Assembly (NCBI GenBank): GCA_964649065.1
Contig: CAZYOL010000001.1
Span: 1,752 to 65,751, forward strand
DNA length: 64,000 nt
Direction of reading: 5' to 3'
Source: an uncultured Spirochaetales bacterium
GTDB lineage: Bacteria > Myxococcota_A > UBA9160 > SMWR01
The notes beneath the pieces were generated by a model. The model was not told the origin of the DNA. It did not search any database and was given only the letters and a program-made list of their open reading frames with translations. Positions 11,853-54,574 of the stretch are shown in pieces (position 1 is the first letter of the stretch; each line of letters starts with the position of its first letter). Made by a program: the position numbers and the translations under genes.

Positions 11853-12005
11853 CGAAGCGTCATGCCCGGTCACTGCTCGCAGCGTCATGCTCGATCCCCC
11901 TCCCCCATCGCTTCCAAGTGTACGCCTGGGTCCCGCGCATGGAAAGCTGGGACCGGGCCGCCGGATCGGGAGCGAGGGCGGCCCTGGGAGCTACGCTCCG
12001 CGGCC

Positions 12006-27834: not shown

Positions 27835-28605
27835 TCAGGCGAAGCGGCTTCCCTTGCGCCAGCCGAAGCTCTGCAGCCTGGCGTAGAGGTTCGGCGCCAG
27901 GGCGAAGAGCAGCTTCAGCAGCCGGAAGGAGATCGGCTCGTCGTAGGTTCCGACGGCCTGGTCGCCGTCGGCGAAGCGCGCGATGCGCATCGCCACCTGG
28001 CGCCCGTCCGGAGCGCTGTCGCAGCGCCGCGCCCGGATCTTGCGCCCGCGCTCGTTCAGGCGGATCGCGGGCGCCCAGGAGAGGGGACCCTGGATGGCGC
28101 CGGGCCGGTAGAGGCGCAGACGCAGCCGGGGGTCGAGGCCGGCCGCGATGGGCCCCACGCCCGTGTAGAAGTGGTGCAGGGCGATCTTCGAGGCGTGGTA
28201 GACGGGTCCGAAGGAGGAGGGTGCGCCGTCCGCGATCGAGCCGATGGCCACCACGTCCAGGCGCCGCTCGCGCGGCTGCTCGGCGGCCAGGATGGCGAAG
28301 ATCGAGGGGAAGACCGCATTGATGCGGTAGATCGACTCGGTCTGGTCGACCCGGGGCAGGCCGCCCTCGCCGATCTCGCTCTCGATCTGGCCGGCGTTCA
28401 GGAAGACCAGGTCCGGGTCTTCGGCGAGCAGCGCCCGGGCGTCGTCGGCGCTCTCCTGCGAGCTCACCAGGATCTTCTCGCAGGCGTCGTGCTTCGCGTC
28501 CTCGCGCCGCGAGACGCCGAGCACCCGCCAGCCGCGCTCCCGGTAGACGTCGGCCAGCGCGGCTCCCAGGGTTCCGGTCACGCCCGTGACGAGGACGGTC
28601 TTCAT
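27835..28605 (-). CDS. atypical SDR family oxidoreductase
   Basis: ATG at 28605 shares 1 nt with the upstream stop (TGATG). MKTVLVTGVTGTLGAALA Rossmann motif and catalytic YHASK. Confidence 0.8.
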   Translation of the reverse strand: MKTVLVTGVTGTLGAALADVYRERGWRVLGVSRREDAKHDACEKILVSSQESADDARALLAEDPDLVFLNAGQIESEIGEGGLPRVDQTESIYRINAVFPSIFAILAAEQPRERRLDVVAIGSIADGAPSSFGPVYHASKIALHHFYTGVGPIAAGLDPRLRLRLYRPGAIQGPLSWAPAIRLNERGRKIRARRCDSAPDGRQVAMRIARFADGDQAVGTYDEPISFRLLKLLFALAPNLYARLQSFGWRKGSRFA

Positions 28606-30104
28606 CACAGCTCCTTCAGGACGTGATCCGCGACCCGCAGCGCGTTGGCCAGGATCGTCAGGCCGGGCCCGACGCCGAGGGAGGTGGGCATGAAGCTCCC
28701 ATCGACGGCGTAGACGTTGTCGTGTCCGTGCAGCCGACACTGGGCGTCGAGCACCGAGTGACGCGGGTCGCGGCCGAAGCGACAGGTTCCCACCTGGTGG
28801 CCGGCGTGGCCGTGTTCGTGCTGGGCGACGTTGCCCAGGGCCAGCCAGGCCCCGGCCCGGCGCAGGCTGTGCTGCAGGCGACGCGTCAGCCAGCGGGCGC
28901 GGAAGACGTCGTAGGGATGGAAGCGGCGGTCGAGGCGGATGCGGCCGCCCTCACCCAGCCGGACCCGGTTGCCCGACTGCGGCAGATCCTCCACGGAGGC
29001 GACGAAGAGCAGGGCCCGGGCGTGGATCGCGCGCGCCAGCGGCATCGGGAAGGGAATGCCCGAGTGCTTGCGCACCGCCAGCGGACCGGGGATCGGAATG
29101 CTCTGGGCGTAGCCCAGCTTGTGCGGAAAGCTCTCGTCTCCCAGATAGAAGTCGGAGACGCCCAGCTCCTTGATGAAGGTCTCCGCGGTCCCGATCGGAG
29201 CCGGGAAGACGCCGACCGGGGCCGCCCCCAGGTGGGTCATGTGATTGCGGCCGAGCTGGTCGCTGCCCCCTCCCAGGCCCGAGCGCTCGAGCAGGATCGG
29301 AGTGCCCAGCGCGCCGGCTCCCAGCAGGAAGACCTCGGCGCGCACGACCTCCACGGCTCCGGTGTCGCGGTGGCGCAGCCGCAGCGAGCGGACGCGGCCC
29401 CGATCGCTCTGGAGCAGCTCGGCCTCGCAGCGCTCCCACAGGGTCAGCCTTCCGCCCGCCAGGGCCGGGGCGATCGCGTTCTTCCAGCTCGAGGCGCGCG
29501 AGCCGTTGGGGCAGAAGTAGCCGGGGCAGGTCGGGCAGCGCAGGCACCGCGACATGTCGATGGCCAGGGGCAGCGGGAAGGGCGCGAGCCCCTCGCGCCG
29601 GAAGGACTCCTCGAGCCTGCGCGAGATCGGCTCCGGCTCGGGCAGACGACCGACGTAGGGGCGCAATCGCCGGCCCAGGTGTGGGAGTGCGGCCCGGTGG
29701 TCGCCCGCGACGTGGTAGAGATCTTCGGCGCGATCGAAGTAGGGGGCCAGCTCGTCGTAGCCGATCGGCCACTCCCAGAGGTGTCGCTCCAGGTAGGGGG
29801 CGTAGAAGCGGCCCGGCTCGAAGTCGCTGCGGCCCGGGCGCAGCAGCACGGCCCCGAAGATCGCCGTGCTGCCCCCCAGCACGCCGCCCACCAGGGGTCG
29901 CTCGCGCCGGCCGTTCAGCACGACGGGGCGATCCTCGCAGGCTTCGCGGTCGACGAGCATGCGGCGCTCGTCCTGCCAGGCGCCGGCATCGCGGAAGCGG
30001 CCCCCGCGCTCCACGACCAGAACGCGGCGTCCCGCCCGAGCCAGCTCGGCGGCGGCGGCGCCTCCTCCGGCGCCGCTCCCGATCACCACCGCATCGAAGT
30101 CCAG
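28605..30104 (-). CDS. GMC family FAD-dependent oxidoreductase with internal CxxCxxCxxxxCP motif
   Basis: FDAVVIGSGAGGGAAAAELARAGRRVLVVERG. C-terminal GMC block HQVGTCRFGRDPRHSVLDAQCRLHGHDNVYAVDGSFMPTSLGVGPGLTILA. The 5' end is set at in-frame CTG 30104, which lies 9 nt after AGGAGG. The first GTG is at 30089. Confidence 0.85.
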   Translation of the reverse strand: MDFDAVVIGSGAGGGAAAAELARAGRRVLVVERGGRFRDAGAWQDERRMLVDREACEDRPVVLNGRRERPLVGGVLGGSTAIFGAVLLRPGRSDFEPGRFYAPYLERHLWEWPIGYDELAPYFDRAEDLYHVAGDHRAALPHLGRRLRPYVGRLPEPEPISRRLEESFRREGLAPFPLPLAIDMSRCLRCPTCPGYFCPNGSRASSWKNAIAPALAGGRLTLWERCEAELLQSDRGRVRSLRLRHRDTGAVEVVRAEVFLLGAGALGTPILLERSGLGGGSDQLGRNHMTHLGAAPVGVFPAPIGTAETFIKELGVSDFYLGDESFPHKLGYAQSIPIPGPLAVRKHSGIPFPMPLARAIHARALLFVASVEDLPQSGNRVRLGEGGRIRLDRRFHPYDVFRARWLTRRLQHSLRRAGAWLALGNVAQHEHGHAGHQVGTCRFGRDPRHSVLDAQCRLHGHDNVYAVDGSFMPTSLGVGPGLTILANALRVADHVLKEL

Positions 30105-39194: not shown

Positions 39195-39983
39195 CTACCA
39201 GAGCAGGGTGTCGGGCAGATAGCGCGCGGCGAGGTCCTCGTAGTAGGGCCGCAGCTGCGCCGGGTCGGGTCGGGAAGCGCCCTTGGAGTAGAGGTCGTGG
39301 CGGGCGAACTCGCGAACCGCCGGCATCAGGCGGCGATCGCGCGCGTCCATCAGCTGGCCGTAGGCCCCTTCGCGGTGCGCGGCCTGGAAGGAGTGGTAGC
39401 GGATCAGGTAGAGCGGCTCCTCGGGGAGGTAGGGCCCCAGCACCCCGTAGAGGTACTCGTCGTGCCCCCAGGACAGGTGCACCTGGTCGAGGCCACAGCC
39501 CTCGGCGTAGATCCCGCAAGCAGTGCTGAACGCGGCCACCCCGCGGTCCGGGTTGGCGGCAAAGAGATCGGCGTGGACGATCCGATCCGAGAAGGCGCAG
39601 CCCACCGGGAAGGTGTCGCCCACCACGGCCCACTGCGGCTCGCCGAAGAGGTGGAGCAGCTTGCCGAGGTCGTGGACCAGGCCGGTCAGGACCCACAGCT
39701 CCGACCGTCCCTCCGCGCGCAGCGACTCCGCGGTCTGGAAGGCGTGCTCCAGCTGCGGAAGCTGCAGATCCGGATCGCTGGCGTCCACGTAGCGGGCCAG
39801 CGCATCGAAGGCCTCCCAGAGGCCCATGCGCCGGCGCCGCGGCGGGAGGAAGGCCGCCTTGCGTTCGAGCACGAAGCGCAGGGTCTGCTGCTCGTGGTTC
39901 TGGCGGTACAGCTCGCGCACCCGCTGGTCCGCGTCGGCGTAGTTGCGGAAGGCCCTGCCGGAGCCCGGCCCCGCTGCGGCCAC
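39195..39983 (-). CDS. myo-inositol oxygenase (MIOX, HD-domain di-iron oxygenase)
   Basis: GTG at 39983 after GGAGGG plus a 6-nt spacer. FRNY..., LVHDLGKLLHLFGEPQWAVVGDTFPVGC, LSWGHDEYLY, IRYHSF, HDLYSK and LRPYYEDLAARYLPDTLLW match mammalian MIOX almost block for block. Confidence 0.85.
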   Translation of the reverse strand: MAAAGPGSGRAFRNYADADQRVRELYRQNHEQQTLRFVLERKAAFLPPRRRRMGLWEAFDALARYVDASDPDLQLPQLEHAFQTAESLRAEGRSELWVLTGLVHDLGKLLHLFGEPQWAVVGDTFPVGCAFSDRIVHADLFAANPDRGVAAFSTACGIYAEGCGLDQVHLSWGHDEYLYGVLGPYLPEEPLYLIRYHSFQAAHREGAYGQLMDARDRRLMPAVREFARHDLYSKGASRPDPAQLRPYYEDLAARYLPDTLLW

Positions 39984-39997
39984 CCTGCGCCCTCCCG

Positions 39998-40519
39998 CTA
40001 CTCCGTGTCGGGGCTCGCGAAGCCGGCTTCCGACTCGGGGAAGCCCAGGGCCTCCGCCCAGCCGGCGGGCTCCTCCTCCGGCTCCGGCTCCTCGATGGCC
40101 AGCTCGCCGGTCCACGGGATCTCGTCGATCAGCTCCTCGTCGCCGCCCTGGGAGCGGGCAGCGGAGCCGGAGGAGCTCAAGGCCTCGATCAGGCTGAGCT
40201 TCTCCTCCAGCAGGCCGATCTGCTCACGCATGTAGACGATCCCGCCGCGGATCGACTCCAGGCGCTCGACGTAGCCGCCCGTCTGGGCGTCCGAGCTCTC
40301 GAGCTGCTCCTCGAGGACCGCGACGCGGGCTCGAAGCTGCTGCTGCACCTGGTGCTGCTGGAGCAGCAGGTAGCCCGCTCCGACCAGGACCAGGAAGAGC
40401 AGCAGGTAGGCGAAGAAGCCGCCGCCGCCCTTGTCCGAGGGCGCCGAGGACGCGGCGGGAGGGCCGCCGGGCGCTGCGCCGGAGGGCGGGTCGCTGGGGG
40501 GCGAAGGGGGGGTGGACAT
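39998..40519 (-). CDS. membrane-anchored coiled-coil protein with acidic C-terminal tail, unknown function
   Basis: Pro/Ser/Gly-rich N-terminus, one TM helix (FFAYLLLFLVLVGAGYLLL), heptad-like LRARVAVLEEQLES...EQIGLLEEKLSLIEAL, then the tail EEPEPEEEPAGW. Confidence 0.6.
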   Translation of the reverse strand: MSTPPSPPSDPPSGAAPGGPPAASSAPSDKGGGGFFAYLLLFLVLVGAGYLLLQQHQVQQQLRARVAVLEEQLESSDAQTGGYVERLESIRGGIVYMREQIGLLEEKLSLIEALSSSGSAARSQGGDEELIDEIPWTGELAIEEPEPEEEPAGWAEALGFPESEAGFASPDTE

Positions 40520-40595: not shown

Positions 40596-41204
40596 TCAGC
40601 CCTCGTCGGGCACGGCGCGGATGGCCGCCGCGATCTCGCGGCTCAGCTGGCCGGCCACCCGGCTCATGGCGCCGACCGAGTCGGCGTAGTCGTCGCCGGC
40701 GCTCGGCTCCACCAGCCTCGTGCGCTGCATCGCCACGCGCTTTCTCGGGTCGTGGCTCCACAGCGTCCAGCGGGCATCCAGGGTCACCGAGCCGTCCTGG
40801 CCGCGCTCGAAGCGCTCGACGTCGATGGTCACCCGCAGGTCGTCCCGGGCCGACTCCTGCCAGGGGAAGGCCCGCACCTGGGCCTCGGGCAGCAGGGCAC
40901 TGAGGTTCTCGGTGATCACCCGCGCCAGGCCCCGATCCAGGTCTTCGCCCCAGCGGTGCTCGTCGGAGACGCTCAGCTCGTGATCGCCCACTCGCGTCAC
41001 CAGGCCGCTGCGGCGCAGGTAACGCGGCAGCTGGATCGGGCCGACGCCGATCGCGAGGCCGGGCTCCTCGGGCGCAGCCCCCTCGGCCCGGCTCACCGGG
41101 CCCAGCACGTACTCGCGCACCTGGATGCCCGGGCTGGCGCAGCCCCCCCACGGAGCCGCGAAGAGCAGGAGGGCCACGGCGCTGGCCATCGATCGAGGTC
41201 TCAC
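40596..41204 (-). CDS. PqiC/DUF330-type ABC-transport auxiliary lipoprotein
   Basis: GTG at 41204 (GTGA overlap) gives MRPRSMASAVALLLFAAPWGGC. VGPIQLPRYLRRSGLVTR, HRWGEDL, and VTIDVERFE...VTLDARWTL are typical of the DUF330 family. Confidence 0.8.
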   Translation of the reverse strand: MRPRSMASAVALLLFAAPWGGCASPGIQVREYVLGPVSRAEGAAPEEPGLAIGVGPIQLPRYLRRSGLVTRVGDHELSVSDEHRWGEDLDRGLARVITENLSALLPEAQVRAFPWQESARDDLRVTIDVERFERGQDGSVTLDARWTLWSHDPRKRVAMQRTRLVEPSAGDDYADSVGAMSRVAGQLSREIAAAIRAVPDEG

Positions 41205-42142
41205 GGGCTCTTCTCCGCTCCGCGGCCGAAGACCACGGAGCTCGGGTTGCGCTCGACGGTGTCGGCCAGCAGCCGGATGGCCCGCGCCGCCTCGGCCAGC
41301 TCTTCGAGGGTCTGGCCGAGCTGGTAGCGCAGCTCCGAGCCGGGCTGGACGGCGCCGTCCAGGCTGACCAGGGTCTCGCGGGCCTGGTCCAGGGCCAGCA
41401 CGGCCGACTCGGCGATCGGCCCGACCTCTGTATCGAGATCCTCGATCAGCGTCCTGGCGGAGCGCGCCGCCTCGCCCGTCTCGTGCACCGCGACGCGCAT
41501 CTCGTCCAGCGTCTCGTCCAGATCGGAGATGACGGCCTTCAGCTGGGGCGAGCCCACCAGGCTGCGGACGTCGGAGATCGCGGCGTCCAGGTTGTCGACG
41601 ATCCTCTCGAGCGGGAGCTCCTGCAGCCGGCTCATCAGGGCGCGCACCGTATTCGAGACCTCCTGGCTCACCGAGGGGATGGTGGGCAGCTCGCGGTAGC
41701 TCTCGTGGAGGCCGAAGTAGTGGATCTCGGTGTCCGGATAGAAGTCGAAGCCCACATAGAGCTGGCCGGTCACCAGGCTCTGGAGCTCCAATCGCGCCCG
41801 CAGGCCCTTCGCCAGCATGAGCTTGAGCCAACGGCCCCGCTCGACGTCGCGCCCCGTCCGCTTGAAGCGATCCGGGTCGACGTCGATTACCACCTCGTTG
41901 ACGATCTCCTTGCTTTCCTGGCTGGCCACGGCGTTCACCTCGACCACGGAGCCGACCTCCACCCCGCGCATCTTCACCGGCGAGGCCACCGTGAGCCCGT
42001 TCACCGAGCCGTCGAAGTAGAGCACGTAGCGCTCCAGCTGGCGCAGCCAGGTGCCGCTGCCCAGGGCGACCACGCCGACCAGCAGCAGGACGACGGCGCC
42101 CACCACGAAGCCCCCGACCAGGCCGGGGTTGGCCTTCTTCAC
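41201..42142 (-). CDS. MlaD/MCE-domain protein with long helical C-terminal extension
   Basis: GTG at 42142 (GTGA overlap). N-terminal TM helix, MCE core YVLYFDGSVNGLTVASPVKMRGVEVGSVVEV...ARLELQSLVTGQLYVGFDF, then about 150 aa of helical region. Confidence 0.88.
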   Translation of the reverse strand: MKKANPGLVGGFVVGAVVLLLVGVVALGSGTWLRQLERYVLYFDGSVNGLTVASPVKMRGVEVGSVVEVNAVASQESKEIVNEVVIDVDPDRFKRTGRDVERGRWLKLMLAKGLRARLELQSLVTGQLYVGFDFYPDTEIHYFGLHESYRELPTIPSVSQEVSNTVRALMSRLQELPLERIVDNLDAAISDVRSLVGSPQLKAVISDLDETLDEMRVAVHETGEAARSARTLIEDLDTEVGPIAESAVLALDQARETLVSLDGAVQPGSELRYQLGQTLEELAEAARAIRLLADTVERNPSSVVFGRGAEKSP

Positions 42143-42909
42143 GTCTCCCCCCGGTTCAGGAAGGTGCGCACCTTCGGGTTGTCGCTGCGATCGCGCAGCT
42201 CCCGCGGGTCGCCGAGAGCGATCTGGGTGCGGGCCTCCGCGCACAGGAAGACCGAGCTGTCGGCGATGGTGAAGATGCTCTGCAGCTCGTGGGTCACCAC
42301 TACGATGGTGATGCCGAGGCTGTCGCGCAGCTCGAGCAGCAGGTCGTCGAGGCGCCGCGAGCTGATCGGGTCGAGACCGGCGGAGGGCTCGTCGAAGAGC
42401 AGCACCTCCGGGTCGAGGGCCATGGCGCGGGCCACTCCGGCCCGCTTCAGCATGCCGCCGCTGACCTCCGAGGGATAGAAGTCCTCGAAGCCCGCCAGCC
42501 CGACGAGGGCCAGCTTGAAGGAGGCCACGTCGCGGATGCGCTCCCTGGAGAGATCCGTGTACTCGGTGAGGGGCAGGGCGATGTTCTCCGCCAGCGTCAT
42601 CGAGCTCCACAGGGCACCGGCCTGGTAGGCGACGCCGAAGCCTCGCTTGAGTCGCTCCCGCTCCTCGTCGCTGGCGGACCAGAAGCTCTCGCCCGAGAAG
42701 AAGACGTCGCCCCGGGCCGGCTGCCGCAGGCCGATCATGTGGCGCAGCAGGGTGCTCTTTCCGCAGCCACTGTCGCCCATGATGACGAAGATCTGGCCGC
42801 GCTGGATCTCGAAGCGCAGGTCGCGCTGCACGACGAAGGAGCCGTAGGCCATGGTCAGGTCGCGCACCTCGATGTGCGGATCCGAGGCCAGCTGCTCGGC
42901 GGCCGACAT
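42139..42909 (-). CDS. MlaF-like ABC transporter ATP-binding protein
   Basis: Walker A GDSGCGKST, signature VSGGMLKRAGVARA, Walker B VLLFDEPSAGLDP. Confidence 0.92.
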   Translation of the reverse strand: MSAAEQLASDPHIEVRDLTMAYGSFVVQRDLRFEIQRGQIFVIMGDSGCGKSTLLRHMIGLRQPARGDVFFSGESFWSASDEERERLKRGFGVAYQAGALWSSMTLAENIALPLTEYTDLSRERIRDVASFKLALVGLAGFEDFYPSEVSGGMLKRAGVARAMALDPEVLLFDEPSAGLDPISSRRLDDLLLELRDSLGITIVVVTHELQSIFTIADSSVFLCAEARTQIALGDPRELRDRSDNPKVRTFLNRGET

Positions 42910-42910
42910 C

Positions 42911-44062
42911 TCAGAGCCCCAGCACGTCGTAGACCACCGTGAGGATGCCGCAGGCCACCACGATGAAGACGATCCCGGTGACCACGGCGGAGGTCGTGGC
43001 CTGGCCCACGGCGGCGGCGCTGCGGCCGCACTGCATGCCGCGCAGGCAGCCCGTCAGCGCCACGATCACGCCGTAGATGGAGGCCTTGAAGAGGCCGCCG
43101 CCGAAGTCGCCGTAGTGGAGGGCTCCCTGCGTCTGGAGCAGATACTGGTCGAAGCCCACGCCGAGGGCCGAGATGCTGACCAGCAGGCCGCCGACGATGC
43201 CCATGACGCTGGCGTAGAGGGCCAGCAGCGGCATCATCAGCATCAGCGCCAGCATGCGCGGCAGCACCAGGTACTCGGTGGGATCGATGCCCAGGGTGCG
43301 CAGGGCATCGATCTCCTCGTTGACCGTCATGGTGCCGAGCTGCGCGGCGAAGGAGGCCCCGGTGCGCCCGGCCATGATGATGGCGGCCATGATCGGGCCC
43401 ATGTCCCGTGCCATGCCGATGCCCACCAGGTCGGCGACGTAGATCTCGGCGCCGAACTGGCGCAGCTGGATCGCCCCCATGAAGGCCAGGATCAGTCCCA
43501 CCAGGGCGCTGATCAGCGACACGATGGGCAGCGCCTCGGCTCCCACCTCCTGCAGGATCGTCCCGAACTCGGTGCGCGGGAAGGTGGCGCGGCCGCGCAG
43601 TAGGCGTCCGAAGGCCAGGGTGGCCTCGCCCAGGAAGACCAGGAAGTCGCGCGCACCCGAGCCGAGCTCTCCGGTGGCCTTGCCGATGCGCACGAGCAGG
43701 GGATCTCGCGCCCCGCCCCGCCCGGTGTCCTTCTTCTCGGGCACGGCCTCGGAGAGGGCGATCAGCCTGCGCACGCCCTCGGGCAGGCCCTCGCGCTCGG
43801 TCTCGACCTGGCGCTCGGCGCAGCCGCGCAGCACCCCCCGCAGCCAGGTGAGCAGACCCGTGTCCCAGGCCGTGACGCCGCTGGTCTCGAAGCGCAGGCT
43901 CGCCGGGCGCCCGGTAGCCACCTCGTCGAGGATCGGCTCCGTCGCAGGCAGCTCGTCGGCGAGGCGCCAGCTCCCCGAGAGCCGCAGGATCAGTACGCCG
44001 GCTTCGGCTCGCTCGATGCTCAGGTCCGTGGCGCTCAGCGGGCCCTCCTCGCTGGGTCCCAT
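42911..44062 (-). CDS. MlaE-family ABC permease with fused N-terminal STAS (MlaB-like) domain
   Basis: ATG at 44062. N-terminal region of about 120 aa VLILRLSGSWRLADELPATEPILDEV...SLRFETSGVTAWDTGLLTWL. MlaE core MARDMGPIMAAIIMAGRTGASFAAQLGTMTVNEEIDALRTLGIDP. Confidence 0.88.
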   Translation of the reverse strand: MGPSEEGPLSATDLSIERAEAGVLILRLSGSWRLADELPATEPILDEVATGRPASLRFETSGVTAWDTGLLTWLRGVLRGCAERQVETEREGLPEGVRRLIALSEAVPEKKDTGRGGARDPLLVRIGKATGELGSGARDFLVFLGEATLAFGRLLRGRATFPRTEFGTILQEVGAEALPIVSLISALVGLILAFMGAIQLRQFGAEIYVADLVGIGMARDMGPIMAAIIMAGRTGASFAAQLGTMTVNEEIDALRTLGIDPTEYLVLPRMLALMLMMPLLALYASVMGIVGGLLVSISALGVGFDQYLLQTQGALHYGDFGGGLFKASIYGVIVALTGCLRGMQCGRSAAAVGQATTSAVVTGIVFIVVACGILTVVYDVLGL

Positions 44063-44158
44063 ACTAGGCGCTTGGGGTCGCGACGGTAAGGCAAAATGGT
44101 CCTGCACCGGCTTGGGCGGCTCCGGAGAGGGCCGGCAGGGGCGCTGGGGCGCGATTCC

Positions 44159-46676: not shown

Positions 46677-47777
46677 CTACAGGGGCTTCCGCGCCAGCCA
46701 GTAGTGCATCGGCGTGAAGATCCCCTGGCGGGCGCCCTCGATCATGCCCTCTCCCAGGGCGCTCATCACGTCATTGTAGGCGCGGGCGGTCCCCGGCGAG
46801 ACCAGCCGCAGCTTCTCCGCCAGGGCCAGCCACCTCTCCCAGGAGAGCAGCGAGAAGGTGGAGTAGAGCACCCTGCGCACGCGGCTGGTCTCCTCGAAGA
46901 AGTAGTACCAGCGCTTGCCGCCAAGCCCGATGCCGAAGTCGTTGTGGTCGCGCTGGGTGACGATCTCGAAGCCCGCCCTCTTCAGGGCCTCGGTGAGATC
47001 CGACATCTTGACCATCCGGCAGACCCCGAGGCCGTACTCGATGAGGTGCCGGACCCGCCGGTGCTCCGGGTTCTCCGGATCGAAGCGCTCGGTCATCTCC
47101 CAGTTGAATCCCGTGAACTTCCCACCGGGCTTGAGCACCCGGAAGACCTCCCGGCAGAGCCTCTCGTAGTCCGGGGAGTGGGCCAGGGACTCGCACATGT
47201 AGACGCCGTCCAGGCTCTCGCTGTCGATCGGGGTCTCGTGGTAGTCGGAGCAGACCAGCTCGATCTGGTGGTCGATCCCGGCCTGCTCGTTCCACTTCTT
47301 CATCTGGGCCAGGTGGCCCTCGTTGATGTTCACCGCCTTGATTCGCGCGCCGGTGAACTGGGCGATGGTTCGCGTGGGTCCGCCCGTGCCGCAGCCGAAG
47401 TCCCCGATCGTCATCGTCTCGTTCGCACCCAGCGAGAGGGCCAGGTAGCACTGGTACATCTGCTGGCAGGCCGCGTAGGACTGCCACTTGCCATCCTCGG
47501 TGGGAAACAGGATTCCGGTGGAGTAGTGCGGACCCCAGACCAGGTGCAAGAGGTCCGTCGTCATGTTGTAGTAGTTCTTGACCAGGTCGAGGTAGCGATC
47601 CCGGCGCAGCTCCTTGAGGTTCCGCTCGTCGGCGTCCAGGTCCGTCGTGTCGTAGAGCTCCAGGTGGCGGTCCAGGTCCTCTTGCTTCACGTCCCGCGGG
47701 AGCCGGCTCTTCAGCCAGAGCCAAAGCCCGATCCCCAGGCCGAAGACTCCGATTGCCACCACGATCGCCACGTTCAT
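46677..47777 (-). CDS. sterol C-24-methyltransferase (ERG6/SMT1 family) homologue with N-terminal TM anchor
   Basis: GDFGCGTGGP (SAM site), VYMCESLAHSP, FRVLKPGGKF, NWEMTERFDPENPEHRRVRHLIEYGLG, ALKRAGFEIV, RWYY, and the C-terminal GIFTPMHYWLARKP. These are colinear with yeast ERG6 blocks. N-terminal TM helix MNVAIVVAIGVFGLGIGLWLWL. Confidence 0.88.
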   Translation of the reverse strand: MNVAIVVAIGVFGLGIGLWLWLKSRLPRDVKQEDLDRHLELYDTTDLDADERNLKELRRDRYLDLVKNYYNMTTDLLHLVWGPHYSTGILFPTEDGKWQSYAACQQMYQCYLALSLGANETMTIGDFGCGTGGPTRTIAQFTGARIKAVNINEGHLAQMKKWNEQAGIDHQIELVCSDYHETPIDSESLDGVYMCESLAHSPDYERLCREVFRVLKPGGKFTGFNWEMTERFDPENPEHRRVRHLIEYGLGVCRMVKMSDLTEALKRAGFEIVTQRDHNDFGIGLGGKRWYYFFEETSRVRRVLYSTFSLLSWERWLALAEKLRLVSPGTARAYNDVMSALGEGMIEGARQGIFTPMHYWLARKPL

Positions 47778-47865
47778 CGCTCCAGTCTCCTCTCCAGAGC
47801 CCGTCGCTGGGCCGCCGGTACTCTAACTGCGCCGCGCCTGCCTCCGCACGCAAAAATCTCTCCCT

Positions 47866-47903: not shown

Positions 47904-49004
47904 TCAGGCCGTGGTGCGGGCGAAGCGGTGGAAGCGGGCGCCCAGGAGCAGGCAGCCCGCGCCGTAGATCAGGAGCACGCCCAGGATCGGGGCGATCTCG
48001 ACCAGCGTGCGCTCGCGCAGGATCAGGTCCGTGACGCCCACCATCGCCCAGGCCGTCGGCGTGATCTGGGCGGCCTGCTGCAGCCACAGCGGCTCCTGGA
48101 AGAGGGGCCACCAGCAGCCCCCGACCGAGCAGACCAGCATCACCACAGTGAGTCCCAGTGGGATGATCTGCTCCCGGGAGCCGACGAAGGCCGACACCAG
48201 GAGGCTGAAGCCGGTCATGCAGAAGACGACGGCCACCACCAGCACCCCGAAGGTCGCGATGGAGGGACCCAGGGAGACGCCGAAGACCCAGTGTCCGAAG
48301 GCGAAGAGGACCGCCATCTGGGCGACCCCGATCAGGAAGCGGGCCAGCAGCTTGCCGCCCAGCAGCACCGCCCGCGGCACCGGCGCGATTCGCAGGCGGG
48401 TGAGCGTTCCCGAGTCCTCCTCCTCGCGCAGCCCGAAGGCCACGCCGAAGAGCACGCCCATCAGCACGAACATGACGCTGAAGCCCGGAACGTTCTGGTC
48501 GGCGGGGCGCGCGTTCTTGCGGGTGCCGGTGAGGTTGTCCTCTTCGATGTGCAGCAGCTCCTCGTAGAGCGGGTCCGCCACGGCCGCCGCCTCGCGGTCG
48601 GCCAGCAGCAGCAGGGCGCGTATGGTGTTGAGCTCCGGCCCCTTGGCCGGGTCGGTCAGCAGCGTGAGGGTCGAGGCCCGGTCGGTGAGATAGTTCTTGC
48701 TGGTTCCCTCGGGGATCACCAGGGCTGCCGCCGCCCTGTTCTCCCGGCCCACCCAGCGCTGGGCGGTCTCGAGATCGACCCGCTCGATCACCACGTGCTC
48801 CGCCAGCGTCTGGGCCAGCAGCTCGGGCACCGGGCCCCCGTCGTCGTCGACGAAGGGCAGCAGGATGAAGCCGCCCTCTCGTCCCCCCTGGGTGCCCGCC
48901 ACGATGGCGATCACCACCGCCGGCACCAGCACCGTGAACAGCAGGGCCGCGCGGTCGCGCAGGAAGAGGCGCAGATCCTTGACGGCGACGGTCCAGGCGA
49001 TCAA
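47904..49004 (-). CDS. ABC-2 type transporter permease
   Basis: TTG at 49004 (TTGA overlap). N-terminal TM helix LLFTVLVPAVVIAIVAG, large periplasmic loop, then 5 TM helices (FSVMFVLMGVLFGVAFGL...IAPILGVLLIYGAGCLLLG). Confidence 0.85.
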   Translation of the reverse strand: MIAWTVAVKDLRLFLRDRAALLFTVLVPAVVIAIVAGTQGGREGGFILLPFVDDDGGPVPELLAQTLAEHVVIERVDLETAQRWVGRENRAAAALVIPEGTSKNYLTDRASTLTLLTDPAKGPELNTIRALLLLADREAAAVADPLYEELLHIEEDNLTGTRKNARPADQNVPGFSVMFVLMGVLFGVAFGLREEEDSGTLTRLRIAPVPRAVLLGGKLLARFLIGVAQMAVLFAFGHWVFGVSLGPSIATFGVLVVAVVFCMTGFSLLVSAFVGSREQIIPLGLTVVMLVCSVGGCWWPLFQEPLWLQQAAQITPTAWAMVGVTDLILRERTLVEIAPILGVLLIYGAGCLLLGARFHRFARTTA

Positions 49005-49600
49005 GCCGGGTCCCGCTTCGCGGCCTTCCTGTTGGCGCGGCGCATGCGGTCGAGCAGCTCGGTGAAGGTCTGGGAGCGGAGCAGGCTGTCGAACTGCTCG
49101 CGGTAGTTCGCGACCAGGCTGATGCCCTCGACGACGATGTCGGTGGCGGTCCAGCGCTCTCCCTGGCGGTGCAGGGGGTAGTCCACCGAGTAGGCGTCCT
49201 TGGTGGTGCGGATGCGGGTGGGGACCAGGGCCCGATCGCCCTCCTGCCGCACCTCTCCGAAGCCGAAGACCGGCTTGCGGAAGAGCAGCAGGCGCCGCAG
49301 GTAGGCCCGCACCAGGACCTCGTCGAAGAGCTCCTGGAACTCCTCCTGCTCCGCCGGCTCGAGGCTCTCGAAGCGCTCGCCGAGGGCGCGCCGCCCCATC
49401 AGCTCCGTATCGAGCAGCTCGCGCGCCAGGTCCGAGAGCACCATCAGCTTCTCGTTGCGGCTGCGCTCGCTGGCGACCTCGGCCTGGGCCCGGTCGAGCA
49501 CGTCCTGGACCGAGCCGAGGGGGGTTCCGGCGTCGACCGCGAGGAGAAGGGGAACGAGGCATACAAGGGTCCACACGGCGATGCCGTGACATCGATGCAT
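49001..49600 (-). CDS. MlaC/Ttg2D-family periplasmic lipid-binding protein
   Basis: Signal peptide MHRCHGIAVWTLVCLVPLLLAVDA. LDTELMGRRALGERFESLEPAEQEEFQELFDEVLVRAYL...WTATDIVVEGISLVANYREQFDSLL follows the MlaC pattern. Confidence 0.85.
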   Translation of the reverse strand: MHRCHGIAVWTLVCLVPLLLAVDAGTPLGSVQDVLDRAQAEVASERSRNEKLMVLSDLARELLDTELMGRRALGERFESLEPAEQEEFQELFDEVLVRAYLRRLLLFRKPVFGFGEVRQEGDRALVPTRIRTTKDAYSVDYPLHRQGERWTATDIVVEGISLVANYREQFDSLLRSQTFTELLDRMRRANRKAAKRDPA

Positions 49601-49610
49601 GAGGCTCCTC

Positions 49611-50384
49611 CTAGTCCCGGAGTCCGTGGCCCGTGAGGTGCATGAAGAGGCGCTCGAGCTTGGGCACCACCCGGACGGGCTCCTCGGCGTCGATCAGCTC
49701 CATCAGCTCGGGCAGGGTCCCGGCGGCGATGATCTGCCCGCCGTCCAGGATCGCGATCCGATCGCAGAGCCTCTCGGCCTCCTCCATGTAGTGGGTCGTG
49801 TAGATCACCGTGGTGCCCTGGGCCGCCACGCTGCGCACCGCCTCGAAGAGGTTCTCCCGCGATTGCGGATCGACGCCGGCGGTGGGCTCGTCGAGCAGCA
49901 GCAGGCGCGGCTCGTGCACGAGGCTGCAGGCCAGGTTGAGGCGGCGCTGCATGCCGCCCGAGTAGATGCGCACGCGGTCGTGGCGGCGGTGGCCGAGGCC
50001 GACCATCTCGAGCAGCGCATCGGCCCGCTCCCGCGCCTGGGCCGCCGCCACCCCGTGGAGCCGCGCGAAGAACAGCAGGTTCTCCTCGGCCGTCAGCTCC
50101 GGGTAGAGGCTGATCTGCTGCGGCGCCAGCCCCACCCAGCGCCGCACGCGCTCCACCTCGTGGACCAGGCTGGCGCCGAAGACCTCCGCCTCACCGGAGC
50201 TGGGCGGCAGCAGGGTGGAGAGCATCGACAGGGTGGTCGTCTTGCCGGCGCCGTTCGGGCCCAGCAGCCCGAAGGTCTCACCGGCGGCAATCCGCAGGGA
50301 GATCCCCCGCACCGCCTCGAGATCTCCGAAGCGCCGCGCCAGATCGGTGAGGACGACCTCCTTGTCGCTGCCGGCGGCTCCCAC
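49611..50384 (-). CDS. ABC transporter ATP-binding protein (ABC-2/DrrA-like)
   Basis: Walker [10 protein letters not shown], signature [12 protein letters not shown], Walker [14 protein letters not shown]. Start set at GTG 50384. The ATG at 50441 (AAGGAG 11 nt upstream) would add 19 codons with atypically low third-position GC. Confidence 0.88.
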
Positions 50385-50460
50385 GCGGCGCGCATTATGG
50401 CGAGAAACTGGCTGAGACAGCAAGATAGACTCCGGTCTCATTTTCTGTCATGCTCCTTCC
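50385..50460. promoter_or_regulatory. divergent promoter/operator region (most AT-rich stretch of the window)
   Basis: Lies between the ABC operon (-) and tetR (+). Inverted repeat TGAGAC (50413..50418), 16-nt spacer, GTCTCA (50435..50440). Related half-site CTGTCA at 50445..50450. Confidence 0.35.
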
Positions 50461-51156
50461 ATGGCGAACCCGCCGTCCGTGGGGAATTCAACCCTGCGCG
50501 CGCCGACCGGCTCGGCCCCCGAGGACGAGGACCCGGAGCTGGCGGATCCGCAGCCGGCGCCGCGGACGCTCGTCATCGAGCGCCGGCTGAGCCGCGCCCA
50601 GGCGCGCCGGCGCGACCGGGTTCGGGCCTCGGCCCGGGCGTTGGCCGAAGCAGGGGGCTACGGGGCGGTCACCATGGACGCGGTCGCCTCCCGCTCCGAG
50701 GTCGCCCGCGCCACCATCTATCGCTACTTCAGCTCGAAGGACCACCTGCTCTCCGAGGTCGCCGTGGAGTGGGGCGAGACCCTGGCCGAGGCCCTGCGCA
50801 GCGAGGGCCCGCGCGGCGACGGCCCGGCGGCCCGCGTTGCCTCGGCCTTCCGCCGCGTGCTCGAGGCCGCCCTCGACTCGCCGCGCCTCACCGAGGCGGT
50901 CGGGCGCGCGGCGATCTCCTCGGATCCCGAGGCGCTGCGCTCCCAGGAGCAGTTCCTCTCGGTGCTCTCCGGTCTGGTCGGGGCCGCCCTGGGTGACGCC
51001 CCCATCCGCCGTCGCGCCGATCGGGAGAAGGTTCTGGGCAACGTCCTGTTCTCGGCCCTGGTCAACATCACCACGGGCCGTTTCGACGAGCGCCAGGCCG
51101 TGGAAATTCTCGAGACCGCTGCGGACCTGCTCTTCGCCGAGGAGGGAGCCGATTGA
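50461..51156 (+). CDS. TetR/AcrR family transcriptional regulator
   Basis: HTH block GYGAVTMDAVASRSEVARATIYRYFSSKDHLLSEV, followed by a helical ligand-binding domain. Confidence 0.9.
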   Translation: MANPPSVGNSTLRAPTGSAPEDEDPELADPQPAPRTLVIERRLSRAQARRRDRVRASARALAEAGGYGAVTMDAVASRSEVARATIYRYFSSKDHLLSEVAVEWGETLAEALRSEGPRGDGPAARVASAFRRVLEAALDSPRLTEAVGRAAISSDPEALRSQEQFLSVLSGLVGAALGDAPIRRRADREKVLGNVLFSALVNITTGRFDERQAVEILETAADLLFAEEGAD

Positions 51157-52259
51157 AGTTCGCGATGTTCTACGAGATTCCGGTGGCGAGGCCCTGGCAC
51201 GATCGCAGCGAGCAGCAGGCCTATCGCGAGGTGCTCGAGCAGGTCGTCTTCGGGGAGCAGATGGGCTTCGAATCGGTGTGGACCGTCGAGCACCACTTCC
51301 TCGAGGAGTACTCCCACTGCTCGAATCCGGAGGTCCTCTACGGTGCGATCGCCGCGTGCACCGAACGTATCCGCATCGGCTACGGCGTGCGCCTGGCTCC
51401 CAAGCCCTACAACCATCCGGTTCGCTCGGCCGAGTCGGCCGCCGTCCTCGACCTGCTCTCCGACGGGCGCGTCGAGTTCGGCACCGGTCGCTCCAGTACC
51501 CGCCTGGAGCTCGAGGGCTTCGGGGTACACCCCGACGAGACGCGCGAGATGTGGCTCGAGGCCGTCGGGCACATCGTGCACTGCTGGACCGAGGAGTACA
51601 ACCAGTTCCAGGGCCGGCACTGGCAGCTGCCGCGTCGCCGGGTCCAGCCCAAGCCCATCCAGCGCCCCCACCCTCCGATCTGGGGGGCGACGGGCAGCCC
51701 CGAAGGGCACCGCATGATGGGCGAGCTGGGCCTGGGCCTGCTCTCCTTCAGCGTGGGCACCTCTCCCGACCAGCTGACGGAGCGCCTCGAGCTCTACCGT
51801 GCCGGCCTGGCGCGCTGCCGGCAGCCTCTCGGGGCCGAGATCAACGATCGCGCCGCCTGCTTCACGATGGTGAACTGCGCGCCGACCCGAGAGGAGAGCT
51901 ACGAGGTCTCGCGCCGCTCCTTCGAGTGGTATCTGCGCCACTCGGCCGAGATGGTGGCCTCGGTGCCCGCCTGGCTCGACGAGATGAAGCAGGCCGAGCA
52001 CGGCAGCTACGCCTATCTCGACGAGGCCGCGCAGATGGTGGGCCAGAAGCTCCACGAGCTGGCCACGCTCGAGGCCCTGCTCGAGATGAACGCCTGCATC
52101 GCGGGCGACCCGGAGGAGGTGATCGAGCGCTGCCGGGCCTACCGGGCCACCGGCGCGGATCTCCTGCTCTGCCTCTTCAACCCCTACGACGTTCCGCACG
52201 AAAAGGTCATGCAGACCCTCGAGCTGTTCGGGAAGCACGTCATCCCCGCCTTCGACTAG
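51153..52259 (+). CDS. LLM-class (luciferase-like) flavin-dependent oxidoreductase
   Basis: TTG at 51153 (TTGA overlap, GGAGGGAG RBS). MKFAMFYE..., GFESVWTVEHHF, DLLSDGRVEFGTGRS, PHPPIWGA. Confidence 0.9.
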   Translation: MKFAMFYEIPVARPWHDRSEQQAYREVLEQVVFGEQMGFESVWTVEHHFLEEYSHCSNPEVLYGAIAACTERIRIGYGVRLAPKPYNHPVRSAESAAVLDLLSDGRVEFGTGRSSTRLELEGFGVHPDETREMWLEAVGHIVHCWTEEYNQFQGRHWQLPRRRVQPKPIQRPHPPIWGATGSPEGHRMMGELGLGLLSFSVGTSPDQLTERLELYRAGLARCRQPLGAEINDRAACFTMVNCAPTREESYEVSRRSFEWYLRHSAEMVASVPAWLDEMKQAEHGSYAYLDEAAQMVGQKLHELATLEALLEMNACIAGDPEEVIERCRAYRATGADLLLCLFNPYDVPHEKVMQTLELFGKHVIPAFD

Positions 52260-52268
52260 GAGAGAGCC

Positions 52269-53510
52269 ATGGCAGCACCGGTCCAGAGCTTCGACCGCAA
52301 CATCGTCCACCCCGACGTCTACGCCGACCACGGCTATCCCCACGACATCTGGACCTGGCTGCGCCAGAACGACCCGCTGCACCGCTGGGAGAGGACGGCG
52401 GGCCTGCCCTTCTGGGCGGTGACCAAGCGCGCCGACATCGTCGAGATCTCCACCCAGCCCGAGATCTTCCTGAACGGCCCCCGGCTGGTGATCTCCCACG
52501 AGCCCGAGGTCCGCAACGAGGAGTTTCCGCCGACGCTGATCCAGATGGACAACCCGCGGCACAGCGCCTACCGGAAGCTGGTGAGCCACCGCTTCAAGCC
52601 CGCTGGCCTGCGCCGCATCCACCACGACATCGAGCGGATCGGCAAGGAGATCGTCGACGCTCTGATCGAGAAGGAGGAGTGGAGCTGCGACTTCGTGAAG
52701 GAGGTCAGCGCTCCGCTGCCGATCGCCGTGATCGCCTGGCTGCTCGGCGTGCCCCGGGCCGACTGGGATCAGCTCTTCGACTGGACCAACCGGACCATCG
52801 GCTCGGCCGATCCCGAGTACCAGCGGGAGGGGCAGGACCAGCAGGCCACGGGCCGCGCCGCCATGATCGAGCTCTTCACCTACTTCAGCCAGCTGGTGGA
52901 GGAGAAGAAGAAGAATCCCTCGGACGACCTGATCTCGCTCTTCGCCACCGCGGAGATCGACGGCGAGAAGCTCGAGCCGATGGACGTGCTCGCCTGGTGC
53001 CTGATCATCGTCGTGGCGGGGAACGAGACCACCCGCAACGGGACCACCGGCGGAATGCTGGCCTTCATCGAGCACCAGGACCAGCTGCGCAAGCTCCAGG
53101 CCCAGCCGGAGCTGCTGCCCCTGGCCGTCGAGGAGGTCGTGCGCTGGACCAGCCCGATCATCCACTTCGCCCGCACCGCCACGCGCGACTACGAGCTGCG
53201 CGGCAAGACCATCCGCGAGGGCGATGCGCTGGCGCTCTTCTACCCCTCGGCCAACCGCGACGAGGAGGTCTTCGAGGAGCCGAATCGCTTCCGGATCGAC
53301 CGCAATCCGAATCGCCACGTCGGCTTCGGGGTGGGCGAGCACTTCTGTCTCGGCGTGCATCTGGCCCGGCTCGAGCTGGAGGTCGCCTACAAGCACCTGC
53401 TCCCGCGGATCGAGGAGATCGAGCTGGCCGGGCCCGTCGAGCGGCTGCGCTCGAGCCTGGTCGGGGGCGTGAAGCACCTGCCGATCCGCTACAGGCTGCG
53501 GCCCACCTAG
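52269..53510 (+). CDS. cytochrome P450 (class I bacterial, AGNETT I-helix)
   Basis: GGAGAG RBS. I-helix IIVVAGNETTRNGT, ExxR in EEVVRW, heme loop FGVGEHFCLGVHLARLE. Confidence 0.93.
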   Translation: MAAPVQSFDRNIVHPDVYADHGYPHDIWTWLRQNDPLHRWERTAGLPFWAVTKRADIVEISTQPEIFLNGPRLVISHEPEVRNEEFPPTLIQMDNPRHSAYRKLVSHRFKPAGLRRIHHDIERIGKEIVDALIEKEEWSCDFVKEVSAPLPIAVIAWLLGVPRADWDQLFDWTNRTIGSADPEYQREGQDQQATGRAAMIELFTYFSQLVEEKKKNPSDDLISLFATAEIDGEKLEPMDVLAWCLIIVVAGNETTRNGTTGGMLAFIEHQDQLRKLQAQPELLPLAVEEVVRWTSPIIHFARTATRDYELRGKTIREGDALALFYPSANRDEEVFEEPNRFRIDRNPNRHVGFGVGEHFCLGVHLARLELEVAYKHLLPRIEEIELAGPVERLRSSLVGGVKHLPIRYRLRPT

Positions 53511-53551
53511 ACCCTCCGCGAAGGAGACGCTCCCGGCTACTCTGCGCGCCG

Positions 53552-54574
53552 ATGGGGCTGGGCGCAGCGCGGCGGGTCGGACTCGTCGTGGCGGCCAACC
53601 TCGCCGGGGCCGCGCTCCTGCTGGCGCTCCTCGAGGGCATCGCGCGGGGGCTGGCCCCGGCGGAGCCGCCGGCCCTCTTCGACCTGCCCGAGCTGCACCG
53701 GCGCGGCCGGCCCTTCGTGGTCGCGCACCCGCAGCGCGGCTTCGCGCTGCGCCCCGGATTCGCCAGCGAGGAGATCCGCGTCGGTGCGTGGGGCCTGCGG
53801 GGCCCGGAGCGCAGCCCGCCCTTCGCGGGCCCGCTGCTGCTCGCGGTGGGCGACTCGACGGTCTTCGGCTGGGGCGTTCGGGACGACGAGGCCTGGCCCG
53901 CGGTCCTGGAGCGACGCCTTCCGGGCGTCACCGTGCTGAACGCCGGCGTGCCCTCCTACACCTCGCCCCAGGCGCGCGCCTACCTGGACGAGCTGCTGCC
54001 GCGCTTCTCGCCGGACATCGTGCTGATCGGCGTGCTCTGGAACGACATCTGGTTCTCCTCCCTGGATCCCTGGTACCCCGAGGCGCTCGTGCTGCGCCGG
54101 CCCCGCGCCTGGCGGCGCTGGCTCTTCGAGCACTCCGCCCTCTTCCGGGCCCTGGCGCTGCGGGGACGGCCGCGCGCGGCGCGCCAGGACGTCTTCAACA
54201 CCCGAGCCCTGGACCACTACGCGAGCCAGCTCGATGCGATGGCACGCGCCTGTGCCCGGGCCGGGGCCCGGCTCGTCTTTCTGGCCCCGCCCTTCGACGA
54301 GTCGCACCTGCGCGAGGACGGCGGCACGCCCCTGGGCCAGCTTCACTTCAGTCGCCCCTTCGTGGGCGAGCTCGCCCGGCGCTACACCGCAGCGCTCGCG
54401 GAGGTGGCCTCCCGCCACGGCGTGGCGGCGCTGGATCACCGCATCTCCCTCAGCACGCCGCGGCAGCCGCGCCTCTTCCTGGATGCCATCCACGCCACCG
54501 CCGAGGGCCACCGCCTGCTCGCCGGGGACGTGGCTCGCTTCCTGCGTCAGCAGGGCTGGCTGGAGTCGCCCTAG
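53552..54574 (+). CDS. membrane-anchored SGNH/GDSL family hydrolase
   Basis: ATG at 53552, in frame in shadow ORF 50837..54574. N-terminal TM helix. Block I LLLAVGDSTVFGWG, block III VLIGVLWNDI, block V LDAIHATAEGH. Confidence 0.8.
   Translation: MGLGAARRVGLVVAANLAGAALLLALLEGIARGLAPAEPPALFDLPELHRRGRPFVVAHPQRGFALRPGFASEEIRVGAWGLRGPERSPPFAGPLLLAVGDSTVFGWGVRDDEAWPAVLERRLPGVTVLNAGVPSYTSPQARAYLDELLPRFSPDIVLIGVLWNDIWFSSLDPWYPEALVLRRPRAWRRWLFEHSALFRALALRGRPRAARQDVFNTRALDHYASQLDAMARACARAGARLVFLAPPFDESHLREDGGTPLGQLHFSRPFVGELARRYTAALAEVASRHGVAALDHRISLSTPRQPRLFLDAIHATAEGHRLLAGDVARFLRQQGWLESP

Follow-up and report, generated by a model that had tools for sequence, protein, structure and literature searches.

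Sterol C-methyltransferases (SMTs) of the eukaryotic ERG6, SMT1 and SMT2 types combine a Methyltransf_11 domain with a C-terminal Sterol_MT_C domain. Functional bacterial SMTs have been described since 2023, the year of assays on 24 metagenomic SMTs; two of the tested enzymes come from a marine Sandaracinus metagenome-assembled genome (MAG) (Brown et al. 2023, PMC10070321); more followed in 2025 (bioRxiv 10.64898/2025.12.19.695621). A preprint from the Welander laboratory (December 2025) listed 25 residues conserved in all functional SMTs, found G84, W85, H90 and F91 to be kept by every SMT tested, active or inactive, and assigned position 249 to the active site; no SMT structure had been solved (bioRxiv 10.64898/2025.12.19.695621). 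Nematodes, dinoflagellates and haptophytes carry a further branch of the superfamily, STRM/4-SMT, which has lost the aromatic signature of Region I (PMC6997595, PMC9136925); Nes and colleagues tied this loss in the nematode enzyme to a different chemistry and substrate orientation (PMC6997595). Here, we report an SMT-like gene in a 64,000-nucleotide stretch (the window) of contig CAZYOL010000001.1, which belongs to an uncultured bacterium placed in Myxococcota_A by GTDB.

The gene had been singled out by a sequence-only reading as a membrane-anchored ERG6-type homologue and as one of only a few bacterial SMTs reported. The latter statement is outdated: since functional bacterial SMTs were shown in 2023, including those of the Sandaracinus MAG (PMC10070321), a bacterial homologue alone is no longer surprising. 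What is new is a subfamily with an invariant, non-canonical Region I absent from every assayed SMT. Its members come only from Myxococcota MAGs and from eukaryotic contigs on which the gene carries introns, one of these contigs being assigned to diatoms; repeatedly, they lie close to CYP125/142-type P450s (two bacterial loci).

Membership in the SMT/ERG6 superfamily

A Pfam scan found a class I S-adenosylmethionine (SAM) methyltransferase domain in the product of the open reading frame (ORF) (Methyltransf_11, E 1.3e-19), together with a Sterol_MT_C match of 40.2 bits at residues 316-365, against a gathering cut-off of 21.7. As a ruler for residue numbering, we used the ERG6 orthologue of S. 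eubayanus (P0261, 383 aa). BLASTP returned a single colinear alignment between the two proteins (residues 13-365 of the ORF product versus 19-368 of ERG6, 29% identity, E 5e-55), in agreement with the colinearity proposed earlier. All of the ERG6-like blocks quoted in that proposal were present, namely GDFGCGTGGP, VYMCESLAHSP, FRVLKPGGKF, NWEMTERFDPENPEHRRVRHLIEYGLG, ALKRAGFEIV, RWYY and the C-terminal GIFTPMHYWLARKP, and the SAM-binding motif DxGxGxxGP was complete (D126, G128, G130, G133 and P134). The likeness to ERG6, SMT1 and SMT2 thus extends over the whole length and includes D189, Y192, E195, G217, W286 and the FTPM...KKP tail in ERG6 numbering.

Matches outside the immediate clade pointed the same way. 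The best of these that we inspected, and all matches with a named source, were SMT-type proteins at 29-37% identity (E 1e-45 to 1e-52), including homologues from Cladosporium, Puccinia and Ectocarpus and JGI entries named 'sterol 24-C-methyltransferase'. No NCBIfam model reached its cut-off for the protein: CfaB scored 40.7 (cut-off 650) and the UbiE models 33-37 (cut-offs 158-378). A Pfam CMAS match of 36.9 bits was of a generic kind and less strong than the combination of methyltransferase and Sterol_MT_C domains. We therefore rejected an identity as a cyclopropane-fatty-acid (CFA) synthase or UbiE, because these family models scored far under their cut-offs and no such name occurred among the named matches. 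The sequence-only reading had named an outcome that would overturn it at this level, a missing Sterol_MT_C match together with best matches to CFA-type or UbiE-type enzymes, and we found neither. On the basis of these profiles and alignments, membership of the ORF product in the SMT/ERG6 superfamily can be regarded as established.

A sequence search of the PDB returned no close relative, only generic small-molecule methyltransferases. We ran AlphaFold2 with the clade alignment and compared the model with the PDB using Foldseek. The model (pTM 0.81, mean pLDDT 79.5) has a long N-terminal helix (residues 2-25) and a Rossmann-type core. Foldseek matches included TleD (5gm1/5gm2) and geranyl diphosphate 2-C-methyltransferase (3vc2/4f86), with E values of 5e-18 to 1e-13 and TM scores of about 0.55-0.76; RebM, MitM, SpnF and sarcosine/dimethylglycine methyltransferase were also matched. 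TleD and geranyl diphosphate 2-C-methyltransferase share a chemistry class with SMTs, the SAM-dependent methylation of a C=C bond, but they are only 16-21% identical to the window protein, act on other substrates and have neither the Sterol_MT_C lid nor a membrane anchor.

The N-terminal transmembrane helix that had been predicted from the sequence was confirmed by hydropathy analysis: the Kyte-Doolittle 19-residue mean reached 2.35 at residues 3-21, the sole segment of the protein above 1.6. Four basic residues (K23, R25, R28 and K31) directly follow the helix, which by the positive-inside rule would place the catalytic domain on the cytoplasmic side. The helix is present in most clade members and is followed by a conserved juxtamembrane motif, WLK-x-R/K-LP. 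Two bacterial sub-lineages, P0010/L002 (10001..11011) and the P0008/P0430 cluster with L095 (10001..11032), begin downstream of the helix, so the anchor is not universal among the bacterial members. In plants, SMT2 likewise carries a hydrophobic anchor at its N terminus. Dinoflagellate 4-SMT has an N-terminal membrane region as well (PMC9136925).

A clade with an altered Region I in bacteria and eukaryotes

By word-indexed search, exhaustive phmmer of 1.8 billion representatives and profile search, we recovered a compact clade, made up of about 27 sequence clusters with identities of 50-73%; for all other SMT-family proteins the value fell sharply to 29-37%. In a neighbour-joining (NJ) tree with 200 bootstraps, the clade was monophyletic in 100% of replicates and sat on a long stem. 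Canonical bacterial SMTs with a normal Region I, some of them on contigs of up to 4.3 Mb, were placed elsewhere in the tree. Across 16 full-length bacterial and eukaryotic clade members, 81 alignment columns were invariant and another 36 were conserved at 90% or more. Fold class, motifs, clade-wide purifying conservation and the membrane anchor of the window protein are demonstrated.

The divergence of Region I that the sequence-only reading had noticed in one protein turned out to be an invariant signature of the entire clade. Region I reads TTDLLHLVWGPHYST in the window protein and VTDFYEYGWGSSFHF in ERG6; across the clade, GWGxxFHF is replaced by V/I-WG-PH-Y-S-T/M. The window protein has V80-W-G-P-H-Y-S-T87, so that of the motif 84-GWGxxFHF-91 only W85 and G86 are kept. 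Further changes are His in place of E82, an aliphatic residue or Phe at positions 81 and 83, and Val or Leu at position 249. These substitutions in Region I and at position 249 were invariant or nearly so in 16 of 16 full-length members, in which the replacing residue set is H78, V/I80, W81, G82, P83, H84, Y85, S86 and V/L250. The clade further differs from ERG6 by an insertion of 6-8 residues after Region I and one of three residues before W286.

We mapped the 25 residues of the preprint onto the window protein through the numbering of the ERG6 orthologue. The protein matched 17 of the 25: the five of DxGxGxxGP, D189, E195, G217, Y74, T78, G268, W286, G333, F357, P359, W85 and G86. The Region III Glu and the Region IV Gly correspond to E196 and G218 of the window protein, and Y74, T78, G268 and W286 to Y70, T74, G269 and W290. 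One of three positions in the methyltransferase-domain set G147/Q154/D189 was kept (D190), with A148 and H155 at the other two; position 147 is also Ala in some canonical eukaryotic SMTs. In the Sterol_MT_C set, G329, F354 and P356 were kept and the changes were L341M and G352A, the Ala at 352 being found in aligned fungal SMTs as well.

Because the substitutions are invariant or nearly invariant across the clade, the Region I state is best read as a selected alternative pocket, probably not as decay. A Region I without G84, H90 and F91 also means that no clade member can be among the SMTs assayed so far: the tested bacterial SMTs, likewise SMT-superfamily genes borne in part by Myxococcota, keep all of G84, W85, H90 and F91, whereas the clade keeps only W85 of the four. 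Judging by their published descriptions, these tested enzymes would form other clades. Lacking the defining Region I motif, the protein is not filed as a canonical 24-SMT.

Clade members fall into two kinds of contig. The bacterial carriers are the window (72.8% GC), a Myxococcota MAG (L001), a Sandaracinaceae MAG (L002), the high-GC contigs L091 to L093, and L095/L096 (71% GC), whose protein is identical to an NCBI 'MAG: ... [Myxococcota bacterium]' entry. A scan of GTDB representatives placed the closest genomic relatives in Myxococcota and Sandaracinaceae MAGs, at 62-71% identity. A scan of metagenome contigs with the clade alignment, using generic patterns, returned only methyltransferases at 24-35%. 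The other members lie on contigs of 46-51% GC with eukaryotic gene content, where the neighbours include annexin, SET, coatomer gamma, adaptin, dynamin, serine carboxypeptidase and dual-specificity phosphatase genes. On two of these contigs, L004 (10031..11095), which also holds annexin, SET, coatomer and adaptin genes, and L006 (8250..9463), introns of about 60-140 nt with canonical GT...AG ends interrupt the gene and their removal restores the frame. The L006 contig derives from a pennate diatom, because its dynamin-like neighbour is 71% identical to a protein of Amphora coffeaeformis; its other named matches are mostly from diatoms, with two from Amoebophrya. A clade shared with intron-bearing eukaryotic genes, one of them on a diatom contig, had not been foreseen by the sequence-only reading.

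The distribution of the clade is patchy, in eukaryotes also: profile and database searches found no clade member in named, sequenced eukaryotes. Mean identity was 73% among the bacterial sequences, 60% within one group of eukaryote-like sequences and 49% between the two eukaryote-like groups; bacterial and eukaryote-like members were 50-60% identical to one another. The branching order of bacteria and eukaryotes was unsettled in the NJ bootstraps (40/32/8%), and so was the direction of transfer. An uncultured Myxococcales MAG (L003, 10001..10111) holds only the last approximately 40 codons of a clade member (…KIYEDLMYALRVGLHDGAKEGIFTPMHYWLARKPG*), a deletion relic.

The composition of the window gene is unusual among its neighbours. 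Its GC content of 65.0%, against a mean of 72.4%, was the lowest of 51 called genes (z -2.8), as was its first-codon-position GC, and its first 110 nt were 64.5% GC, matching the earlier hand count of about 64%. Third-position GC, at 0.946, matched the host. An old acquisition from a donor of lower GC, since ameliorated at silent sites, fits this pattern, and functional constraint on composition could yield the same one.

Sterol-type genes around the locus

To survey the window, we combined frame-specific GC analysis with Pfam scans; of the 54 called ORFs scanned, about 11 had no Pfam match. The SMT gene is the fourth in a same-strand run, in which it follows an ABC ATPase, an MlaC-like protein, an ABC-2 permease and a spacer; coordinates are given in the table. 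The spacer has the length and the A/T run described previously (ATTTTT at 47857..47852) and carries the run GGAGAGGAG, 9 nt upstream of the start codon. A scan of the spacer and the surroundings of the gene for a sigma-70 promoter and an intrinsic terminator gave no consensus match. After the SMT gene come a Na+/H+ exchanger, a K+ channel and an MlaE/MlaF/MlaD set. Lipid-transport-type gene sets thus stand on either side of it, MlaE/MlaF/MlaD-like at 41201..44107 and ABC ATPase/MlaC-like/ABC-2 permease at 47904..50441. MlaE, MlaF and MlaD belong to the same families as the actinobacterial Mce sterol importers.

Features of the SMT-like locus, as positions in the window
Feature	Position	Strand	Remarks
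SMT-like methyltransferase ORF	46677..47777	-	366 aa, ATG start; coordinates include the stop codon
N-terminal membrane helix, residues 2-22 (NVAIVVAIGVFGLGIGLWLWL)	47712..47774	-	Kyte-Doolittle, model
Divergent Region I, residues 74-87 (TDLLHLVWGPHYST)	47517..47558	-	equals ERG6 residues 78-91 (TDFYEYGWGSSFHF)
SAM-binding Region II, residues 126-134 (DFGCGTGGP = DxGxGxxGP)	47376..47402	-	Pfam, alignment
Region III, residues 193-202 (YMCESLAHSP)	47172..47201	-	Y193 and E196 equal ERG6 Y192 and E195
Sterol_MT_C domain, residues 316-365, C-terminal end GIFTPMHYWLARKP	46683..46832	-	Pfam, 40.2 bits
126-nt spacer, ABC-2 permease stop codon to SMT start codon	47778..47903	-	73% GC
ABC-2 permease	47904..about 48992	-	Pfam
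MlaC-like	49001..49600	-	Pfam
ABC ATPase	49611..50441	-	Pfam; first gene of the run containing the SMT gene
KstR-like TetR	50461..51156	+	PDB search
Luciferase-like monooxygenase	51153..52259	+	Pfam
CYP125-type P450	52269..53510	+	PDB search
GDSL hydrolase	about 53510..54574	+	Pfam

Two genes that the sequence-only reading had overlooked, a KstR-like TetR repressor and a CYP125-type P450, lie 2.7-5.7 kb from the SMT gene. Transcribed divergently, the TetR gene begins at a distance of 19 bp from the ABC ATPase gene that opens the SMT run. Its four best PDB matches, all full-length, were all KstR (E 1e-16), the mycobacterial cholesterol-catabolism repressor; the next entry stood at 5e-10. The P450 was about 50% identical to a reconstructed CYP125 ancestor (E 1e-116) and matched the CYP125 steroid C26-monooxygenase of Mycobacterium tuberculosis at 2e-81. 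The run at 50461..54574 looks like a sterol side-chain oxidation module, as judged from these matches. The KstR operator consensus TnnAACnnGTTnnA had one match in the window, TACAACCAGTTCCA at 51597..51610 (+), with 0.01 expected by chance; the consensus is that of mycobacteria, and its match falls within the luciferase-like monooxygenase gene rather than between genes. No inverted repeat was found in the divergent region 50370..50480. PDB searches gave no strong relative for the luciferase-like monooxygenase or for a GMC oxidoreductase at 28605..30089 (a possible cholesterol oxidase).

A second bacterial locus has a comparable P450. On L095/L096 (7257..13606), the orthologue, 71% identical to the window protein, is flanked on one side by an FA_desaturase-family gene and a P450, and on the other by an unannotated ORF of about 340 aa (about 11180..12211, minus strand, no Pfam match) and then a P450. 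The best PDB matches of the L095/L096 P450 were the steroid C26-monooxygenases CYP142 and CYP125 (1e-110 to 1e-105), and it was 40% identical to the window P450. Further along lie a Rieske oxygenase fragment, a CMAS-like methyltransferase and an NMO-type oxidoreductase, and the locus may be a lipid-tailoring cluster. In L001, a CYP107/267-like P450 is immediately downstream of the orthologue. Of the four bacterial loci whose flanks were usable, three therefore had a P450 within 5 kb, two of these P450s being of the sterol side-chain omega-hydroxylase type. If a myxobacterial genome of about 10 Mb holds a few tens of P450 genes, as we assumed, chance adjacency would be roughly a few percent per locus, in a small sample. 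Acyl-CoA dehydrogenase, which we considered as a further conserved neighbour (L001, L091 and L003), was rejected, since the proteins shared at most 30% mutual identity and none was encoded in the window.

Elsewhere in the window, three genes gave matches of a different kind. A 540-aa protein (11918..13540, +) carries DUF1295 in its C-terminal half (8.8e-47) and has no Pfam match in its N-terminal 300 aa; DUF1295 is a family related to membrane enzymes of the steroid 5-alpha-reductase/ICMT type. The other two matched myo-inositol oxygenase (MIOX; 39195..40115, -; 1.3e-90) and TMTC_DUF1736, of protein O-mannosyltransferase type (20249..21781, +). Both of these families are better known from eukaryotes.

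Candidate acceptors and chemistry

The explanation we prefer, on which we remain evenly divided, is that the gene product is functional: tethered to the membrane, it would transfer a methyl group from SAM to a carbon of a sterol or steroid, and either this acceptor or the methylated position would be non-canonical. In such an enzyme, the single N-terminal helix would tether the protein to the inner membrane with the catalytic domain in the cytoplasm. The methyl group of SAM would move electrophilically onto a C=C bond of the sterol or steroid, or onto an enol, with the substrate bound in a membrane-facing pocket; deprotonation would follow methyl transfer, and the acceptor or the methylated position would differ from that of the canonical delta-24 C-24 SMTs. 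We infer the acceptor class from family membership, the sterol-type neighbours and the sterol-producing host family. A sterol or steroid is favoured because the clade conserves the SMT-specific lid and the catalytic residues, because purifying selection maintains the alternative pocket across two domains of life, because sterol-type regulatory and oxidative genes lie close by in two independent bacterial loci, and because the nearest relatives are found in Sandaracinaceae, a cholesterol-making family. Indeed, a Sandaracinus in culture synthesizes its cholesterol de novo (bioRxiv 10.1101/2024.11.01.621555). The earlier suggestion of an acceptor possibly other than a canonical delta-24 sterol gains support from the clade-wide divergence of Region I.

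Several points weigh against this explanation. The clade is known from sequences alone, and no assayed SMT shares its Region I. Eight of the 25 functional-SMT residues are changed in the window protein (G84V, F89Y, H90S, F91T, G147A, Q154H, L341M and G352A). In the structure model, pLDDT fell below 50 at residues 79-84 of Region I, and confidence was also low at residues 289-311. As the sequence-only reading had observed, no oxidosqualene cyclase, squalene epoxidase, CYP51 or C-4 demethylase (sdmAB) was found by Pfam among the 54 ORFs of the 64-kb window. The KstR-like and CYP125-type genes, which are genomic context for the SMT gene, lie on the opposite strand. Genes of these kinds usually belong to sterol catabolism, a pathway where a methyltransferase is not known to play a part. 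Apart from P450 proximity, the bacterial loci share no synteny.

It is unlikely, though worth serious consideration, that the protein is an ordinary delta-24 sterol C-24 methyltransferase in which the Region I differences are tolerated drift. JGI labels clade members as sterol 24-C-methyltransferase, the clade retains E195, Y192, D189, W85, W286 and Region II, and Region I keeps residual aromatics (W81 and Y85, and in most of the clade also F at position 81); moreover, the Sandaracinus MAG carries functional SMTs (PMC10070321). However, the Region I changes are invariant in bacteria and eukaryotes, which argues for a selected state and not for drift, and G84, H90 and F91 are kept in every tested SMT (bioRxiv 10.64898/2025.12.19.695621). 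The clade also sits on its long stem, apart from the canonical bacterial SMTs that exist with a normal Region I. Finally, the window gene is outside any sterol biosynthesis cluster, unlike the Sandaracinus genes and 5 of 14 environmental SMTs tested, which lie in such clusters with sdmAB.

SMT-like triterpene methyltransferases exist in Botryococcus, and the window protein could by analogy methylate the olefin of a non-steroid lipid, such as squalene or another acyclic or polycyclic isoprenoid. Such a role would suit the rebuilt sterol-recognition region, a 64-kb window in which sterol synthesis genes were not found, structural neighbours (TleD and geranyl diphosphate methyltransferase) that methylate isoprenoid chains, and CYP124-type relatives of the neighbouring P450s that act on methyl-branched lipids. 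We nevertheless consider it rather unlikely, given that the protein retains the Sterol_MT_C lid and matches 17 of 25 SMT residues, and that its KstR-like and CYP125/142-like neighbours speak for steroids and not for acyclic lipids.

A bolder version of the sterol explanation, for which we see only a slim prospect, is an SMT with a regiochemistry that no known enzyme has (for example at C-23 or C-26) and whose gene was exchanged between diatom-type algae and marine Myxococcota. Sterols with 23-methyl and 23,24-dimethyl groups occur in a few diatoms and in dinoflagellates, and an additional SMT for them is 'yet to be identified' (PMC8172173).

We regard as improbable a ring (C-4 type) methyltransferase of 3-oxosteroids, analogous to the STRM/4-SMT of nematodes, dinoflagellates and haptophytes. 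In its favour, CYP125-type enzymes, like the one next door, use cholest-4-en-3-one-type substrates. The Region I of 4-SMT is without the aromatic signature Y81EYGWG86 (PMC6997595), of which Y81, E82, Y83 and G84 are all replaced in the clade. Dinoflagellate STRM has an N-terminal hydrophobic anchor, and a few diatoms contain 4-methyl sterols (PMC9136925). By contrast, a rotifer protein that is a probable aschelminth homologue (P0046) showed 28-33% identity to the clade, with neither grouping nor special affinity. The clade is also nearer to ERG6, at about 30% identity, than is C. elegans 4-SMT, at a reported 21% (PMC6997595), a comparison that relies on published descriptions of 4-SMT, and the lineage is not obviously the same.

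It is very improbable that the gene was acquired from a eukaryote and is now catalytically dead or decaying: the lowest GC of 51 called genes, the truncated relic in the Myxococcales MAG and the patchy distribution would suit such a remnant, but the ORF is intact with a host-like third-position GC (0.946), the SAM motif and catalytic Glu are complete, 81 columns are invariant in 16 sequences from two domains of life, and the structure model is confident overall.

Side-chain-alkylated steranes serve as biomarkers of eukaryotes, algae and sponges. If the clade is active on sterols, a wider set of methylated sterols would lie within bacterial reach, the clade would provide a natural experiment on how Region I controls acceptor and regiochemistry, and the inter-domain transfer of a sterol-tailoring enzyme would be documented. 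If the enzymes act on another lipid, they would mark a limit to the trust that can be placed in 'Sterol_MT_C' annotations. Should the regiochemistry prove to be new, uncultured bacteria could make precursors of steranes that are now read as algal or sponge biomarkers.

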